DNA of 20,711 bases, taken from a virus. The notes below the pieces were generated by a model. The model was not told the DNA's origin. It saw nothing but the letters and a program-made list of their open reading frames with translations, and did not search any database. The translations under genes and the position numbers were made by a program. Within the stretch, counting starts at the first letter, position 1, and every line of letters begins with the position of its first letter. This document shows, one piece after another, positions 2,721-8,063 of this stretch. Location of the stretch: UHGV virus genome UHGV-0163620, one strand, 5' to 3'.

Positions 2721-3797
2721 TTACTCAAATAACTTTTTCACTTCATCAACTGTCTGAAGATAACGTTCGCCCTCAATCTCAATACCTATTGCCTGACGTC
2801 CTAACTTCAGCGCAGCTTTAATAGTTGAGCCTGATCCCATAAAGAAATCGGCAACGATATCTCCGGGGCGTGAACTACTCTTTATAATATGTTCCATCAT
2901 CGCTGCAGGTTTTTCACATGGGTGCTTGCCAGGATAATATTGCACAGGAGGAAACTCCCATACATCGGTATAAGGTACATCAGCAGTAACATGAAATGGA
3001 CGGCGTAAATTTTCATACTGAGCCTTCAAATCATCATACTGCTTCTTTACTTCCTCATAATGCAATTTCAGATCGCTATAACGCTTTTCATGTTCTGAAT
3101 AATCAACATTAAAAGGATATGGACACGGGACACCGAGTGAATCTGCCTTCCTGCGAAATAATTCGCATAGTTTATTAAAATCAATTAATGATGGAAGCCG
3201 CCACTGCGAATAAGAAAACCAGTGTGAACACATCTGCTTTCCTGTCGCTGAATTAATGTCTGCGGCTGATATATCTAACTGACGGCGAGCCAGCGAAAAA
3301 GCATCAATTAGTGGAGAAAAAATATTTTTTCTTAAATCTGCACATTTTGAAGCATAACCTGACTGACCTTTAGCATAACCTGACGCGCCGTAATGCTCTG
3401 CAAATAATATTCTTTCAGTAGCAGGAAAATAAGCCCTTAAACTTTCTTTATGACAACCGCGCCACATACCACTGGGTTTAGCCCAAATGATATGGTTCAG
3501 AACATTGAAACGGTCGCGAGTTAATAATTCAATTTTTGACGCAAGGCGAGAGCCGGTAAACATATACAGGCTGCCATTAGGGGCCAATATCCGCCAAAAT
3601 TCTGCCAAAAATTCGTCAATCCACCCCAAAAAGTCAGCATCGCTATCCCACTGGTTATCCCATGCGTTAGCCTTTACGCCGAAGTATGGTGGGTCTGTTG
3701 CAATCAAATTGACCGAGTTATCAGGGATGGTTTTGATAAATTGCAGAGAATCTGCGCAAACGAGTTGTGCGCCATGAATATTAGTGGTTTTGAACAT
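2721..3797 (-). CDS. DNA methyltransferase, beta-class amino-methyltransferase (N6-adenine or N4-cytosine), orphan
   Basis: DPPY catalytic motif near N-terminus (LIATDPPYF) followed by C-terminal AdoMet motif FxGxG (DFFMGSGST); start set at second Met (3797) by family N-terminus pattern, alternative ATG at 3842. Confidence 0.8.
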   Translation of the reverse strand: MFKTTNIHGAQLVCADSLQFIKTIPDNSVNLIATDPPYFGVKANAWDNQWDSDADFLGWIDEFLAEFWRILAPNGSLYMFTGSRLASKIELLTRDRFNVLNHIIWAKPSGMWRGCHKESLRAYFPATERILFAEHYGASGYAKGQSGYASKCADLRKNIFSPLIDAFSLARRQLDISAADINSATGKQMCSHWFSYSQWRLPSLIDFNKLCELFRRKADSLGVPCPYPFNVDYSEHEKRYSDLKLHYEEVKKQYDDLKAQYENLRRPFHVTADVPYTDVWEFPPVQYYPGKHPCEKPAAMMEHIIKSSSRPGDIVADFFMGSGSTIKAALKLGRQAIGIEIEGERYLQTVDEVKKLFE

Positions 3798-3932
3798 AGC
3801 TATTATTTTTTTGCCTGGGTAAGCTAACCCGGCGATGCGCATCGCGGGTGGGCTTTAGGTTCAGCCTATAGCTCTGGCATGGGTTGACCGCAGGACAAGC
3901 TGCAACTTGTCCTGCGCCCACTTTTCAGGCAC

Positions 3933-3954
3933 AAAAAAACCGCCATAAAGGCGG
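3933..3954 (-). terminator. intrinsic terminator in late-operon leader (tR'-like)
   Basis: On minus strand: 5-bp GC stem CCGCC/GGCGG (3940-3954), 5-nt loop, followed by a run of seven U (plus-strand A run 3933-3939). Confidence 0.6.
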
Positions 3955-3993
3955 CTTGTTGGCTGTTGGGTACAAAAAACCCAACTTAACAAA

Positions 3994-4022: not shown

Positions 4023-4042
4023 GCTTTTTCGTTTTTGTGCTG

Positions 4043-4058
4043 TGCGACCGTGGTCGCA
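4043..4058. other. sopC-like 16-bp inverted repeat TGCGACCGTGGTCGCA, copy 2 (extends to a 24-bp palindrome 4039-4062)
   Basis: Exact reverse complement of copy 1; lies about 21 bp upstream of the candidate late promoter -35. Confidence 0.6.
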
Positions 4059-4064
4059 CAGCTT

Positions 4065-4292
4065 TTAGAAAGTTGCCTGCTTATATTCATCGGTCAAAGA
4101 ATATCGACCAGATCCGCTACGCTTTGCAACCCCAAAACAGATCATCTGTTCGATGATAAATTCAACGGCAGCTTGACTCAAAAAACAGGCTTCGCTTAAC
4201 TCTTTCAGGGAAATGCGTGGGTATCCACGCATAACACATTCCACACTCAGGGCCGCTTCAGTCATATTTCCACGAATTTCATTAATATTCAT
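4065..4292 (-). CDS. small hypothetical protein, 75 aa, possible winged-helix DNA-binding fold
   Basis: ORF with GAGAGG Shine-Dalgarno before the ATG at 4292; helix-turn-helix-like segment; function not recognised. Confidence 0.5.
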   Translation of the reverse strand: MNINEIRGNMTEAALSVECVMRGYPRISLKELSEACFLSQAAVEFIIEQMICFGVAKRSGSGRYSLTDEYKQATF

Positions 4293-4305
4293 AACGCCTC
4301 TCTAA

Positions 4306-4527
4306 TCAATCTTGAAACTGGAAATCAACATCAGCCATAAAGCGGTTCAACTCAGCCAGTTTTGGCCCCATAGTCCCAACTAAGCGACCAGCCAGTCGGT
4401 CTGTTAGGTTGGTACTGTTGAAACCATATTCCTTTTCGAAACGTTCAACCTTCTGCCACAACTCATACAGTTCGTTAGCTATCTCCGCAACGTCGTCGCG
4501 CATTTTTTCGTTACCTTGATAATTCAT
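4306..4527 (-). CDS. small hypothetical protein, 73 aa
   Basis: Start moved to the ATG at 4527, which has a GGAGG Shine-Dalgarno (rc of 4533-4537) 5 nt upstream. Confidence 0.5.
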   Translation of the reverse strand: MNYQGNEKMRDDVAEIANELYELWQKVERFEKEYGFNSTNLTDRLAGRLVGTMGPKLAELNRFMADVDFQFQD

Positions 4528-4692
4528 AATATCCTCCAAATTCATATAGTTAGTGGGTTATTACCCCTCAATGACACGAACTGTAACTCTGCCAAACGAA
4601 CACATCCAGTGTTATTTTTCGCTTTTTAGTGAAATTTTTAATTTGCGTTGTTTTCTTGTTTTGGTGTATTTTATGGATATGGAGGCTATAAT

Positions 4693-5004
4693 ATGTTTAA
4701 CGTGATAACCCACCCTGCAGCACTGGATGAACTGCTTGAACTACCAGATGATTTGCGAGGTCGCATGACCAGATTAATTGAGCGACTGGAGAAAGAAGGC
4801 AACAAACTGAAGATGCCCCATAGCCGTGTAATAGGTGGAGGGCTTTTTGAACTACGAGTAGGGGATAAAAACATCGCAAGAACGCTGTACGCCTACGCGA
4901 CTGGTAACGAAATTTATCTATTGCATGCATTTGTAAAAAAGACACAGAAAACACCGGTGAAGGCTATCGAAATCGCCAGAACTCGCCTGAAGGAGATGAA
5001 CTGA
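4693..5004 (+). CDS. RelE/ParE-superfamily toxin, HigB-2 / Gp49-like (DUF891)
   Basis: About 103 aa with family-typical fold signature; toxin-first order; GGAGG 7 nt upstream of the ATG at 4693; stop overlaps the next start (TGATG). Confidence 0.7.
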   Translation: MFNVITHPAALDELLELPDDLRGRMTRLIERLEKEGNKLKMPHSRVIGGGLFELRVGDKNIARTLYAYATGNEIYLLHAFVKKTQKTPVKAIEIARTRLKEMN

Positions 5005-5291
5005 TGAAAGCGAAAGGCATCCCGTTTAACGAAGTAAAAGAAAAACTCCTCAACACTCCAGAAGCCGTCAAAGGATATGAAGAGGCCGACAAAGAGCTGG
5101 AGATGGTCGAAATGTTATACGAAATGAGGGAAAGAGCAGGTTTAACGAAATCAGCTCTGGCTGAACGAATGGGGTTGCGACCGTCAGCCATCAGCCGCCT
5201 GGAAAGCAATCCTTTAGGGGCAAGTATGAAAACTTTGGCTAAATATGCTCATGCCTGCGGCGCAACCATCGATATTCGCGCTGTTTATTAA
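5004..5291 (+). CDS. HTH XRE-family antitoxin (HigA-2-like)
   Basis: 95 aa with C-terminal helix-turn-helix; translationally coupled to the upstream toxin. Confidence 0.7.
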   Translation: MKAKGIPFNEVKEKLLNTPEAVKGYEEADKELEMVEMLYEMRERAGLTKSALAERMGLRPSAISRLESNPLGASMKTLAKYAHACGATIDIRAVY

Positions 5292-5333
5292 TTAGACTCT
5301 TTTACTACCCCGTCTAGAAGGGCGGGGTGTGCA

Positions 5334-5537
5334 TCAATGATGTGAACGCTCAACAGCGATAGTTTGCTGACAATGCTGGGCAATCTCTCGCGACATGTTG
5401 ATGAGTCGTGAAACCTCACCAATATGTAGGCTGGCTTCTGGAGAAGCCAGGGTGACGCTAACCAGATCCAGAACGGCGTCAATATCTCTTAAATTTGAAT
5501 CGAGTTGTTCAAGAGTTGATACGGCTGCTTCAGACAT
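5334..5537 (-). CDS. LexA-controlled small protein, 67 aa, candidate SOS-inducible antirepressor (AntC-like)
   Basis: ORF begins 39 bp downstream (minus strand) of a near-consensus LexA box; identity as an antirepressor is inferred from N15 biology recalled from memory. Confidence 0.5.
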   Translation of the reverse strand: MSEAAVSTLEQLDSNLRDIDAVLDLVSVTLASPEASLHIGEVSRLINMSREIAQHCQQTIAVERSHH

Positions 5538-5575
5538 TAAATCTCATACCATTTAACTAAAAAAGGTTATTTATA

Positions 5576-5591
5576 CTGTATAAAATTACAG
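5576..5591. promoter_or_regulatory. LexA (SOS) box CTGT-N8-ACAG
   Basis: TACTGTATAAAATTACAGGG at 5574-5593 matches CTGT(N8)ACAG with an AT-rich spacer; overlaps the candidate -10 region for the 5334..5537 gene. Confidence 0.7.
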
Positions 5592-5619
5592 GGTAAAACT
5601 CAAACTTTACGGTCAATTT

Positions 5620-5862
5620 TCAATGAATTAACTGCGTAAACTGCTGTGTGACCCGATACTTATGCTCTCTCCCTATGCCACGATCAACTTTCTCAAGAAG
5701 TCCAGTACGGACAGCAGAATCAAGCATCCTTTTAACAATTCTGCTATTTAACCCAACATCAAAAGAAAGCATCGAAGCGAAAACAAAACCATCACCACCA
5801 TCAGAAAAGCTCTTTTCGCTCCGTTTTCGTATCATTTCAAAAAGCAATGCCTTTTTATCCAT
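5620..5862 (-). CDS. hypothetical protein, 80 aa
   Basis: ORF with GGAGGG Shine-Dalgarno 4 nt upstream of the ATG at 5862; no family recognised. Confidence 0.5.
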   Translation of the reverse strand: MDKKALLFEMIRKRSEKSFSDGGDGFVFASMLSFDVGLNSRIVKRMLDSAVRTGLLEKVDRGIGREHKYRVTQQFTQLIH

Positions 5863-5871
5863 TTATCCCTC

Positions 5872-5885
5872 CGTGACCAGTCACG
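5872..5885. other. 14-bp palindrome CGTGACCAGTCACG (second dyad-site class), copy 1
   Basis: Identical 14-mer at 11927-11940 and its reverse complement at 16951-16964; abuts the Shine-Dalgarno of 5620..5862 and spans the stop of 5881..6207. Confidence 0.55.
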
Positions 5886-6207
5886 CTTTGAGCGCAAGTT
5901 TCAGCCTCGTGGTTGTAAGGTGGCATGACCCTTCGCCATCAAAAATGCATTCTGAAACAGGCATTTTTTGACCACATCGCGGGCAAGTAGTAGATAGCTG
6001 CTTCTGCAGCTCCTTATAGTTTTTCCTGATCAGCAAACCAATGACTTCGTTCTCCGAATATGGAACTCGCCCTGGTCTACGCAATACACAAATTTCCCCC
6101 AACATACGTAACTCGTCAGGTTCTAGAATCCAGTCCCGTCTTGATGTGCCTTCCTTCTTCAACCGTTCCCTGCGTCTCCTTTGCCGTTCTGCCGGTGTCA
6201 GCGCCAT
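5881..6207 (-). CDS. hypothetical protein, 108 aa, possible zinc-ribbon (CPRCG...C...C)
   Basis: ORF with GGAGG Shine-Dalgarno before the ATG at 6207; basic N-terminus and cysteine cluster. Confidence 0.5.
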   Translation of the reverse strand: MALTPAERQRRRRERLKKEGTSRRDWILEPDELRMLGEICVLRRPGRVPYSENEVIGLLIRKNYKELQKQLSTTCPRCGQKMPVSECIFDGEGSCHLTTTRLKLALKA

Positions 6208-6222
6208 AAATCCTCCTGAAAA

Positions 6223-6753
6223 TTACTTAACCCAATTAACTACACCGCCAGCGGCCACAACCGCCCTTTCACAGTCACGCTCATATCTCAAAGGTTGAAA
6301 TACACCATCAATAAAATATTTATCTCCACCAAACGCTGCAGGAAGTGAAACAGAAAACTGAATATGACCATCCGGAGTTACCGGAGAGTTGCCAGCCAGT
6401 CTACGCAACACAGCCTTAACGGCCTCAATACGGTCATCATCAACTTTTTCTACAATATTGGAATTTAAATACTTCGAAGCCTTGCTATGCCAATCGCTGG
6501 TTTTAGGGTCTTGTCCATCCATCAAACGCCAAGCTTCAGCGATTAACTCATAGCCAGTGACAGTGGCTTCCTGCGCATCACCAATAAGTCGTGTAATCTC
6601 TCTTTCAAGCCGACCGCCTAGCTCTGTTTTAGTGCAATGTTCTGACCAATCGCCAGCCTCAAGCAGCGCGAGAATGCTTAAAATATCGTCCAATAGAACG
6701 GTAGTATTATCGACTTCCTTCTGAAACTCACCGGCTACTGATTTATGCATCAT
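6223..6753 (-). CDS. hypothetical protein, 176 aa, with C-terminal PVTPDGHI motif
   Basis: ORF with tandem ATG start (MMH); shares a PVTPDG[HW]I motif with 6964..7698. Confidence 0.55.
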   Translation of the reverse strand: MMHKSVAGEFQKEVDNTTVLLDDILSILALLEAGDWSEHCTKTELGGRLEREITRLIGDAQEATVTGYELIAEAWRLMDGQDPKTSDWHSKASKYLNSNIVEKVDDDRIEAVKAVLRRLAGNSPVTPDGHIQFSVSLPAAFGGDKYFIDGVFQPLRYERDCERAVVAAGGVVNWVK

Positions 6754-7052
6754 TCGTCATCCTCATCTGAGTCATCCTCATCACAGGATGAGAGTAGTGG
6801 GTTAGTCATTCGCCCTACTTGAGTGGCGTAGCCACGCCGACAGAGATTGCGCAGCACACTGTATATTTCGAACATCTCGGTTCGTTCATCACCAACATCA
6901 AGCTCAGATGCTATAGCGTGGCATTCAGTCGCGAGAGCCGATATTTTCTGAAATAACTCTGCTTTATTCACTCTTCGACTCCTGCGGCGGTTCTGGTAGT
7001 GGCATCCAGTGAGTTGCTTGCTCAATACCATTACCCGGCTTAATCGTTGCAT
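6750..7052 (-). CDS. hypothetical acidic-tail protein, 100 aa (start uncertain)
   Basis: ORF whose stop overlaps the start of 6223..6753; its 5' part overlaps 6964..7698 in another frame, so one of the two is mis-started or spurious. Confidence 0.35.
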   Translation of the reverse strand: MQRLSRVMVLSKQLTGCHYQNRRRSRRVNKAELFQKISALATECHAIASELDVGDERTEMFEIYSVLRNLCRRGYATQVGRMTNPLLSSCDEDDSDEDDE

Positions 7053-7698
7053 CTCCGCGCCGAAAGGTGCTTCCGGTATAGCGTGCGGAGCATATTAGCG
7101 GTTCAACCAGAGAGCTATCGAAATTCACCGAAATAAGCACGTTCTGGCCCTTTTCAGGCATTCGCTCACTACAGCTTATCCAACCATCCGGAGTTACCGG
7201 ATAGTTGCCAGCCTCATACGCGACCCTTATCCAGTGCATAAGCATTTCAGTACTTACACATCCACAATCAACATCAATTTTGTCATGCTGCTGTTCCAGC
7301 CATTGCTCAAAAGTTAACTTGTAAGTTTGGCTTACAGGTTTGGCTTCCAGTTCTGCTATGTGATTTTTGGCTGATTCCAACTCAATCGACAATTTTTCCA
7401 ACTGCTCTTTATGATTTTTATATTCCTGATATGCGTGCCAGGACTGACCTTTGCGCACACTATCAGTGATATCAGTAATCTGTTCTGGTGTTAGCGTGGT
7501 CAGTGGCTGTGATGGGAAAATAAGCACTTTCCCGGAATCCCAATCAAAACCAGTGTGAATTGACTGAACCTCAACTGAAGGTGTTGAACCAATGCTGCCA
7601 GGCGAATGAACAACGATTGTTACATCCATATCGCGACGATGGCTGTGGTTGTTGGACAAAATACGATTCACCAACTCAGAAAATTTAGAAAATTTCAT
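6964..7698 (-). CDS. hypothetical protein with DUF551-like C-terminal domain
   Basis: 244 aa; C-terminal NYPVTPDGWISCSERMPEKGQNVLISV...THWMPLPEPP resembles the prophage DUF551 pattern (from memory). Confidence 0.55.
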   Translation of the reverse strand: MKFSKFSELVNRILSNNHSHRRDMDVTIVVHSPGSIGSTPSVEVQSIHTGFDWDSGKVLIFPSQPLTTLTPEQITDITDSVRKGQSWHAYQEYKNHKEQLEKLSIELESAKNHIAELEAKPVSQTYKLTFEQWLEQQHDKIDVDCGCVSTEMLMHWIRVAYEAGNYPVTPDGWISCSERMPEKGQNVLISVNFDSSLVEPLICSARYTGSTFRRGDATIKPGNGIEQATHWMPLPEPPQESKSE

Positions 7699-8063
7699 GC
7701 TGATTCACCTTTCTTTGCTCTCTCCTGTCGGAACATCACTATCATCAGGTCGCCTTTTGTCGCTATCTTGGCTGTTGTGCCTGGCTCAATGCGGCTAAGT
7801 TCAAATGCGTCATAGAACGCCTCCAACGCTTTCTGGCGTTTTTCCTGTTTGCGGCGCTTTCCCCACTGCTTTAGAAAAACAGAGGCCGCCCACTTCCCCG
7901 CACTGAACATGATGTAAAACCAACCGAGAAGTGCCAGACCGGTATTTAGGGCCGTATCGATCGTTATCGTGGTGTCGATATTCACTACGCCACCTCCTGA
8001 AAATTTCCCTGATAAAACGCCAACACACGCTGCATAACTTCGCTCTTCCGACAATCGTGACAA
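7695..8063 (-). CDS. hypothetical protein, 122 aa, one hydrophobic segment (start uncertain)
   Basis: ORF; its 5' end overlaps 7985..8404 in another frame, so the true start may be an internal Met (around 7910). Confidence 0.35.
   Translation of the reverse strand: MSRLSEERSYAACVGVLSGKFSGGGVVNIDTTITIDTALNTGLALLGWFYIMFSAGKWAASVFLKQWGKRRKQEKRQKALEAFYDAFELSRIEPGTTAKIATKGDLMIVMFRQERAKKGESA

Follow-up and report, generated by a model that had tools for sequence, protein, structure and literature searches.

A probable gp49-gp48 type toxin-antitoxin addiction module in an N15-like linear phage-plasmid

The gp49-gp48 genes of N15 are known as a Tad-Ata/HigBA-like toxin-antitoxin (TA) locus, in which the toxin is encoded upstream of an antitoxin with an Xre-type helix-turn-helix (HTH) domain (PMC2701414, PMC5906591, PMC3581621, PMC12977533). 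As experimental source for the stabilising activity of the N15 pair, these citing papers give Dziewit et al. 2007 (J Bacteriol 189:1983). Tad-Ata from plasmid pAMI2 in Paracoccus aminophilus and the SXT pair s044-s045 are likewise made by a COG4679/DUF891/Gp49 toxin encoded first and an Xre-HTH antitoxin encoded next, and both are described as plasmid-stabilising modules (PMC2701414, PMC3832669). A gene pair of the same make-up resides at positions 4693-5291 of the UHGV virus genome UHGV-0163620, a stretch of 20,711 nucleotides analysed at its full length and called here the window. The pair is very probably a gp49-gp48 type II TA addiction module (Tad-Ata/Gp49-type HigBA) of an N15-like linear phage-plasmid, as indicated by gene structure, protein family, orthology to N15 gp49/gp48 and fold, and by the conservation of both the catalytic residues and, throughout the lineage, the module. 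The system as such is already known, N15 gp49/gp48 being a published plasmid-stabilising TA since 2007, and the locus has little significance beyond its correct annotation.

Both genes are on the + strand. The toxin gene (4693-5004; ATG at 4693, TGA at 5002-5004) encodes a protein of 103 amino acids, orthologous to N15 gp49. Its Shine-Dalgarno sequence GGAGG (4681-4685), found seven bases before the ATG, is invariant in N15 and phiKO2. The antitoxin gene (5004-5291; ATG at 5004, TAA at 5289-5291) encodes a 95 amino acid orthologue of N15 gp48, and the Shine-Dalgarno sequence AAGGAG (4990-4995) preceding it is still contained in the toxin gene, at its 3' end. The stop codon of the toxin shares one base with the start codon of the antitoxin in the sequence cTGATGa (TGATG, 5002-5006), an overlap which is compatible with translational coupling of toxin and antitoxin. 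The pair thus has the reverse TA architecture, a toxin gene followed by an overlapping small gene for an Xre-HTH antitoxin. A longer toxin open reading frame (ORF), started by TTG at 4648 and measuring 118 amino acids, was rejected: every orthologue begins with MFNVITHP, and GGAGG sits before the ATG at 4693. The flanking genes (4065-4292, 4306-4545, 5334-5537, 5620-5862 and 5881-6207) are all on the - strand; the pair is therefore an opposite-strand unit, convergent with the gene at 5334-5537. Coordinates, toxin-first order, one-base overlap, strand and convergence had been claimed in the original prediction, made from the sequence alone, and the reading of ORFs and strands agrees with it on all of them.

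The toxin matches the Pfam family PF05973, "Phage derived protein Gp49-like", along the entire profile (1-90 of 90; E 2.5e-29; 101.6 bits, cut-off 23.9), and PF05973 is present in all the database homologues among the matches listed. The family is named after N15 gp49, and the module is the archetype behind the family name. The antitoxin matches HTH_3 (E 2.8e-12, residues 38-90); its HTH, of the Xre type (residues ~36-92), is preceded by an N-terminal extension. Judging from these matches, the two ORFs are not chance ORFs, because both have Pfam counterparts (Gp49 and HTH_3) and 840 homologues were found in the database search. Dozens of public phage-plasmid records contain identical or near-identical copies, annotated as RelE/ParE-family toxin and HTH regulator. 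NCBIfam profiles provided no model for the toxin, and generic HTH matches only, below threshold, for the antitoxin. Relatives of the antitoxin recognized by sequence in the PDB are HigA2 (7ewc), HipB and S. pneumoniae HigA (6af3_B).

The pair had been predicted to be HigB/HigA-like, with a toxin of the RelE/ParE superfamily and an Xre-HTH partner. The profile searches place the two proteins there, and the label holds in a broad sense only: the toxin belongs to the Gp49/Tad branch, and not to the classical HigB family of the Rts1/E. coli type. Classical HigBA loci (Rts1, P. vulgaris, E. coli, V. cholerae) share with the window pair the toxin-first order, a toxin of the RelE superfamily and an Xre-HTH antitoxin, but their toxins are of a different Pfam family. 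No Pfam match to the classical HigB family was obtained for the toxin, PF05973 being its sole Pfam match, and comparison by Foldseek with E. coli/Shigella HigB structures gave weak scores (E 0.06-0.12). Toxins with a Gp49 domain have been described as little similar to classical HigB toxins (PMC5906591).

The 1.4 kb region around the pair is 99% identical to the Escherichia phages PhiR46_1 and YDC107_1 (genus Ravinvirus), and ~77% identical to the Klebsiella phage phiKO2. At the protein level, the toxin is 100% identical to its counterparts in PhiR46_1 and YDC107_1, 92% to the product of N15 gene 49 and 91% to that of phiKO2 gene 49 (tblastn), and the antitoxin is 85% and 80% identical to gp48 of N15 and phiKO2, respectively. 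The full window aligns with the PhiR46_1/YDC107_1 stretch that carries the lysis genes, the methylase, Q-cro-cB, repA and the protelomerase; by this alignment, the window is part of an N15-like linear phage-plasmid (Ravinvirus). Position (from gene 50 to antC/gene 47), orientation, protein lengths (103 and 95 amino acids) and the one-base overlap are the same in N15 and in the window, and the upstream palindrome and the Shine-Dalgarno sequence are conserved. In contrast, one palindrome base differs, and the hairpin found at the 3' end is unrelated in sequence to that of N15, and lacks the T-run of the latter. Phage-plasmid stabilisation, suggested by the original prediction, is in line with this orthology, the N15 pair being described as a stabilising TA, as far as the papers cited above relate it. 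Toxicity of N15 gp49 by itself and its neutralisation by gp48 are likewise reported, going by those papers and by the title of the 2007 one.

The toxin was modelled by AlphaFold on a 49-sequence family alignment (predicted local distance difference test, pLDDT, 89.6; predicted template modelling score, pTM, 0.83). The model shows a beta-sheet with flanking helices and a long C-terminal helix (strands, E, and helices, H, in the order E3-6, H8-15, H19-35, E44-48, E51-57, E62-70, E73-82, H89-102). The fold is predicted to be RelE/HigB-like, and its long C-terminal helix is one that Gp49-like HigB toxins typically have. The top Foldseek match in the PDB is ribosome-bound HigB(TAC) of M. tuberculosis (Rv1955; 7nbu_Y, template modelling score, TM, 0.78), and 7awk is also among the top hits. 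S. pneumoniae HigB (6af4, TM 0.71-0.75) comes next, followed by YoeB and RelE (E ~1e-3 to 7e-3). The same two systems provide the nearest solved structures by sequence, S. pneumoniae HigB (6af3, E 5.5e-5) and M. tuberculosis HigB1/HigB(TAC) (7nbu, 7awk). M. tuberculosis HigB(TAC) and S. pneumoniae HigBA (TM 0.78 and 0.75) have in common with the window pair the Gp49-like RelE fold, the long C-terminal helix, the catalytic residues E, R, N, F, K, Q and K, and a toxin gene preceding that of an HTH antitoxin. They differ in that sequence identity to the window toxin is only ~25%. The M. tuberculosis system is moreover chromosomal and depends on a SecB-like chaperone (TAC); the N15-type locus, by contrast, has been called 'chaperone-less' (PMC3581621).

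Residues important for the activity of M. tuberculosis HigB(TAC) are K58, E66, R68, N73, R77, F93, K95, Q98 and K99 (PMC9098466). In the sequence alignment, K58, E66, R68, N73, F93, K95, Q98 and K99 correspond to R45, E53, R55, N60, F80, K82, Q85 and K86 of the toxin, respectively, and R77 aligns adjacent to R63. The correspondence was read by hand from the alignment; numbering in the structure chain is offset by 6, as checked on all nine residues. E53, R55, R63, K82 and K83 are invariant in the 49-sequence family alignment. The RelE/HigB fold and the conservation of catalytic residues suggest that the toxin may be an active ribosome-dependent mRNA endonuclease, neutralised by the HTH antitoxin.

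The 28 Escherichia/Shigella plasmids which carry the antC-gp47-gp46 backbone (at least 87% identity) are the same 28 which carry the TA pair (at least 91%). The module is therefore fixed in the Escherichia/Shigella N15-like lineage. Among complete E. coli genomes, the cassette was found in 16 of 5,426, always in a plasmid, most of ~46 kb, with no chromosomal copy. A related cassette marks 608 plasmids of PLSDB, and the prediction for 359 of these is that they are conjugative. A gp49/gp48 cassette, 84% identical, was found in the E. fergusonii IncI conjugative plasmid NZ_CP056952.1 (positions 4078-7824 of locus L005). The latter is bordered by IS66/IS256 elements at one side, and by genes for an Abi-family protein and a HEPN nuclease at the other, in a setting which resembles a defence island.

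In some relatives, the slot between gp50 and antC hosts a different TA. HicA/HicB genes, on the opposite strand and with the toxin first, occupy it in two Citrobacter N15-like plasmids (1729-2388 of locus L006 and 1702-2361 of locus L008), and in the Enterobacter phage MStein-2023a (4519-5387 of locus L004), where a truncated gp48 remnant of 63 amino acids is found beside HicB. An Enterobacter cloacae relative retains the Gp49/HTH pair. HicA is a toxin of an unrelated family (a double-stranded RNA-binding domain-like mRNA interferase), of which HicB is the antitoxin. That another toxin-first TA takes the place of the pair there, with unchanged orientation, speaks for selection of an addiction function at this slot, which looks like a site of TA exchange. 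The Gp49/HTH to HicAB swap in Citrobacter and Enterobacter is the one mildly new point provided by the locus; it illustrates, on a small scale, how cassettes turn over when an addiction function is under selection.

The unit is thus cassette-like and exchangeable, but neither a recent nor a sporadic insertion. The original prediction had viewed it as an inserted moron, and this view may hold in part. The opposite orientation is there, and the slot is exchangeable; the promoter is a candidate only, the 3' hairpin has no U-tract, and a module fixed in 28 plasmids, yet swapped for HicAB in some relatives, is not sporadic. Recent insertion, as judged from foreign base composition, was rejected, since GC content (0.42-0.48) does not set the cassette apart from its surroundings.

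In the mechanism proposed, the two genes would be transcribed into one operon transcript, in the direction opposite to the surrounding phage genes, and translated in a coupled fashion, toxin first. The Xre-HTH antitoxin would bind and neutralise the toxin and, alone or complexed with it, probably repress the operon at the conserved palindrome TTCRCT-N4-AGTGAA, located just upstream of the promoter. In a daughter cell which has not received the linear plasmid prophage, the labile antitoxin would decay; the freed RelE-fold toxin would enter the ribosomal A site, cleave mRNA and halt growth, and plasmid-free segregants would be eliminated by post-segregational killing. Ribosome-dependent mRNA cleavage, operator and promoter are the inferred parts of this scheme.

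The 150 bp upstream of the toxin gene are strongly conserved with N15 and phiKO2 in the alignment. The best-conserved block includes the palindrome TTCGCT-TTTT-AGTGAA (4618-4633), at which the HTH antitoxin may have its operator. In N15 and phiKO2 it is perfect (TTCACT-N4-AGTGAA), whereas the window copy differs at one base. Because of this mismatch the palindrome was missed by an inverted-repeat search with a 6-base seed, and was recognized through the alignment. The equivalent palindrome is labelled as a 'putative terminator' stem-loop in the N15 record. It is followed, on the + strand, by a candidate sigma-70 promoter with a weak -35 region (4643-4672), identified from sequence and alignment, in which TTGCGT (4643-4648) is separated by 18 bases from TATTTT (4667-4672). 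N15 reads TTGTGT-N17-TATATT at the aligned position. Palindrome and candidate promoter may constitute an operator plus promoter, in the layout usual for autoregulated TA operons. That the pair has a promoter of its own, as the original prediction had it, is consistent with the conserved upstream region and with the weak candidate, but the scan for consensus promoters found none directly upstream of the toxin gene.

The sole consensus sigma-70-like site on the + strand near the TA pair is TTCATA-16-TATAGT (4523-4550). It lies ~140 nt upstream, would leave the toxin gene with a leader of about 135 nt, and coincides in part with the start codon region of the gp50-like gene, which is divergent; as TA promoter it was found unconvincing. 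The region of this site is also conserved in N15 and phiKO2, which may merely reflect the gp50 coding and ribosome-binding sequence. When the leader (150 nt) was folded, neither strand gave a significant structure (z +0.6 and +0.5).

The operon ends with a 10-bp hairpin at 5306-5329, located in the gap that separates the convergent genes. It is significantly stable in the + strand transcript only (-19.8 kcal/mol, z -3.6; - strand, -11.7 kcal/mol, z -1.0), and has no U-tract. Hairpins unrelated in sequence occur at the same place in N15 and phiKO2, where they are accompanied by a T-run, long in the former (CCCTTTTTTATT) and short in the latter. A further terminator-like site detected by the scan is on the wrong strand, within the antitoxin gene, and was unconvincing.

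The gene convergent with the TA operon (5334-5537, - strand, 67 amino acids) is not part of the TA. Its product is 56% identical (E 5e-25) to that of an unannotated N15 ORF located between genes 48 and 47, 57% identical to phiKO2 gp47, and matches the PHROG family phrog_10889, 'anti-repressor' (E 6.9e-8). AntC of N15 is a LexA-controlled antirepressor, as cited in PMC3121763 with Mardanov & Ravin 2007 as source. A LexA box, CTGTATAAAATTACAG (5576-5591), is found 39 bases before the ATG of the - strand gene, and is the only match to CTGT-N8-ACAG in the window, where 0.16 are expected. N15, YDC107_1, MStein-2023a and the plasmids of Citrobacter and Enterobacter have this box at the corresponding site, as does phiKO2, there with one mismatch. 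On sequence grounds, the neighbour described by the original prediction as SOS-controlled is a homologue of N15 AntC. Its placement next to the pair had been held to be worth remark; the adjacency is real, but is the ordinary gene order of the N15 family, and nothing special to the window. In the N15 RefSeq record the antC-like ORF has no coding sequence feature (NC_001901, ~39592-39831; 3664-3903 of locus L003, - strand in the locus); its LexA box is at 3916-3931 of the same locus. Homologues in related records are labelled only 'hypothetical protein' or 'putative gp47'.

Several points weigh against the assignment of the pair as an addiction module. The demonstrated function of the N15 pair is known here from the title of the 2007 paper and from papers citing it. 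The window pair is an allelic variant, with 8 substitutions in the 103 residues of the toxin and 14 in the 95 of the antitoxin. Tad-Ata of pAMI2 and s044-s045 of SXT are distant homologues residing in replicons of other kinds, likened to the window pair by description. Deletion of s044/s045 did not raise the loss of SXT (PMC2654960); therefore, stabilisation of a test plasmid is no proof of a role in the native element. The missing consensus promoter and the hairpin devoid of a U-tract count on the same side, as does the existence of non-toxic members of the Gp49 family, such as M. tuberculosis HigB2 and HigB3, which lack several catalytic residues (PMC9098466).

The non-toxic members raise the question whether the pair is a decayed TA, in which the HTH protein would be left with transcription regulation in the phage-plasmid as its only task; the records of N15 and phiKO2 indeed call the antitoxin merely 'transcriptional regulator'. 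This is extremely unlikely: both ORFs are intact and have the lengths seen in N15, the toxin, unlike HigB2 and HigB3, keeps the catalytic residues, which are invariant in the family, and is more conserved than the antitoxin (92% versus 85%), and the N15 orthologue is reported, by the papers citing it, as a functional stabilising system. The toxin could also be a ParE-like gyrase poison rather than an mRNA interferase, as the database label 'RelE/ParE family toxin' and the fold common to ParE and RelE would allow. ParE structures, however, are placed much lower by Foldseek than HigB, YoeB and RelE (E 0.035-0.11, TM 0.39-0.53, compared to 0.78 for HigB(TAC)), the basic and acidic residues needed for the RNase activity of HigB(TAC) are conserved, and the predicted long C-terminal helix is typical of Gp49-type HigB toxins (PMC9098466), so that a gyrase poison is scarcely credible.

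Other explanations leave the toxin active and assign it a further role. The module could chiefly defend the lysogen against other phages, through abortive infection or superinfection exclusion, with addiction as a secondary effect. An infecting phage would stop host transcription, the antitoxin would decay, and the toxin would block translation before the invader has finished its cycle. The cassette residing on the IncI plasmid next to the Abi-family protein and the HEPN nuclease, among insertion sequence elements, fits this role, as does the fact that the 359 conjugative plasmids among the 608 with a related cassette are not phage-plasmids. The module is also laid out as an independent prophage unit, which is typical of prophage-borne defence genes, and the toxin partially matches the PADLOC model NsnC (E 2.6e-7). 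The NsnC match nevertheless covers a domain-sized piece only (54 of 293 profile positions, 229-282); no PADLOC model was matched at full length, the remaining matches being generic HTH ones. No defence phenotype of N15 gp49/gp48 was found in the literature searched, where stabilisation is the only function reported for the orthologue. A defence role by abortive infection, which the original prediction had also allowed for, is compatible with addiction and does not replace it, and as the main role it is unlikely. The convergence with antC may in turn be functional: TA transcription proceeding into antC could damp leaky antirepressor expression in the lysogen, or an SOS-induced antC transcript, antisense to the antitoxin gene, could release the toxin. 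The convergent layout and the LexA box are kept in N15, phiKO2, YDC107_1, MStein-2023a and the Citrobacter/Enterobacter plasmids, and persist even where HicAB replaces the pair; the stop codons are only 42 bp apart, and the intervening hairpin, with no U-tract, is weak on the antC strand (-11.7 kcal/mol, z -1.0). This evidence is purely positional, however, synteny is expected by descent in a close family, and the hairpins at the end of the TA operon, followed by a T-run that is clear in N15 and short in phiKO2, should terminate transcription; such a coupling is very unlikely. More generally, the slot is always filled by a toxin-first TA (Gp49/HTH or HicAB) converging on the LexA-controlled antirepressor gene. 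It is decidedly improbable that it is more than an addiction locus, either coupled to antC by transcriptional interference or antisense read-through, or having a double role in abortive infection. If true, coupling of TA and antC would tie toxin release, or the leakiness of the antirepressor, to the SOS-driven lysis-lysogeny switch.

The pair of the window, viewed as an addiction module of the gp49-gp48 type, is part of a maintenance toolkit which is standard for N15-like elements, and includes a nearby centromere-like palindrome and the SOS-controlled antirepressor. The presence of the pair in related phage-plasmids, which the original prediction had proposed to check, follows the pattern given above: it is found in all 28 Escherichia/Shigella elements, and HicAB is found instead in two Citrobacter plasmids and in MStein-2023a. 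The palindrome, GCTGTGCGACC-GT-GGTCGCACAGC, is located at 4039-4062, just 3' of the gp51-like gene on the - strand. It matches a phiKO2 sequence annotated as 'putative plasmid partitioning site' (TGTGCGACCGTGGTCGCACG, 3726-3743 of locus L001), and a centromere-like site would therefore lie ~630 bp from the TA module. Between the methylase and gp51-like genes (3925-3956), a GC-rich hairpin is flanked by an A-run at one side and by a T-rich segment at the other (aaaaaaaccgccataaaggcggcttgtt). It looks like a bidirectional terminator, and falls in the region where the phiKO2 and N15 records annotate a terminator and a late promoter.

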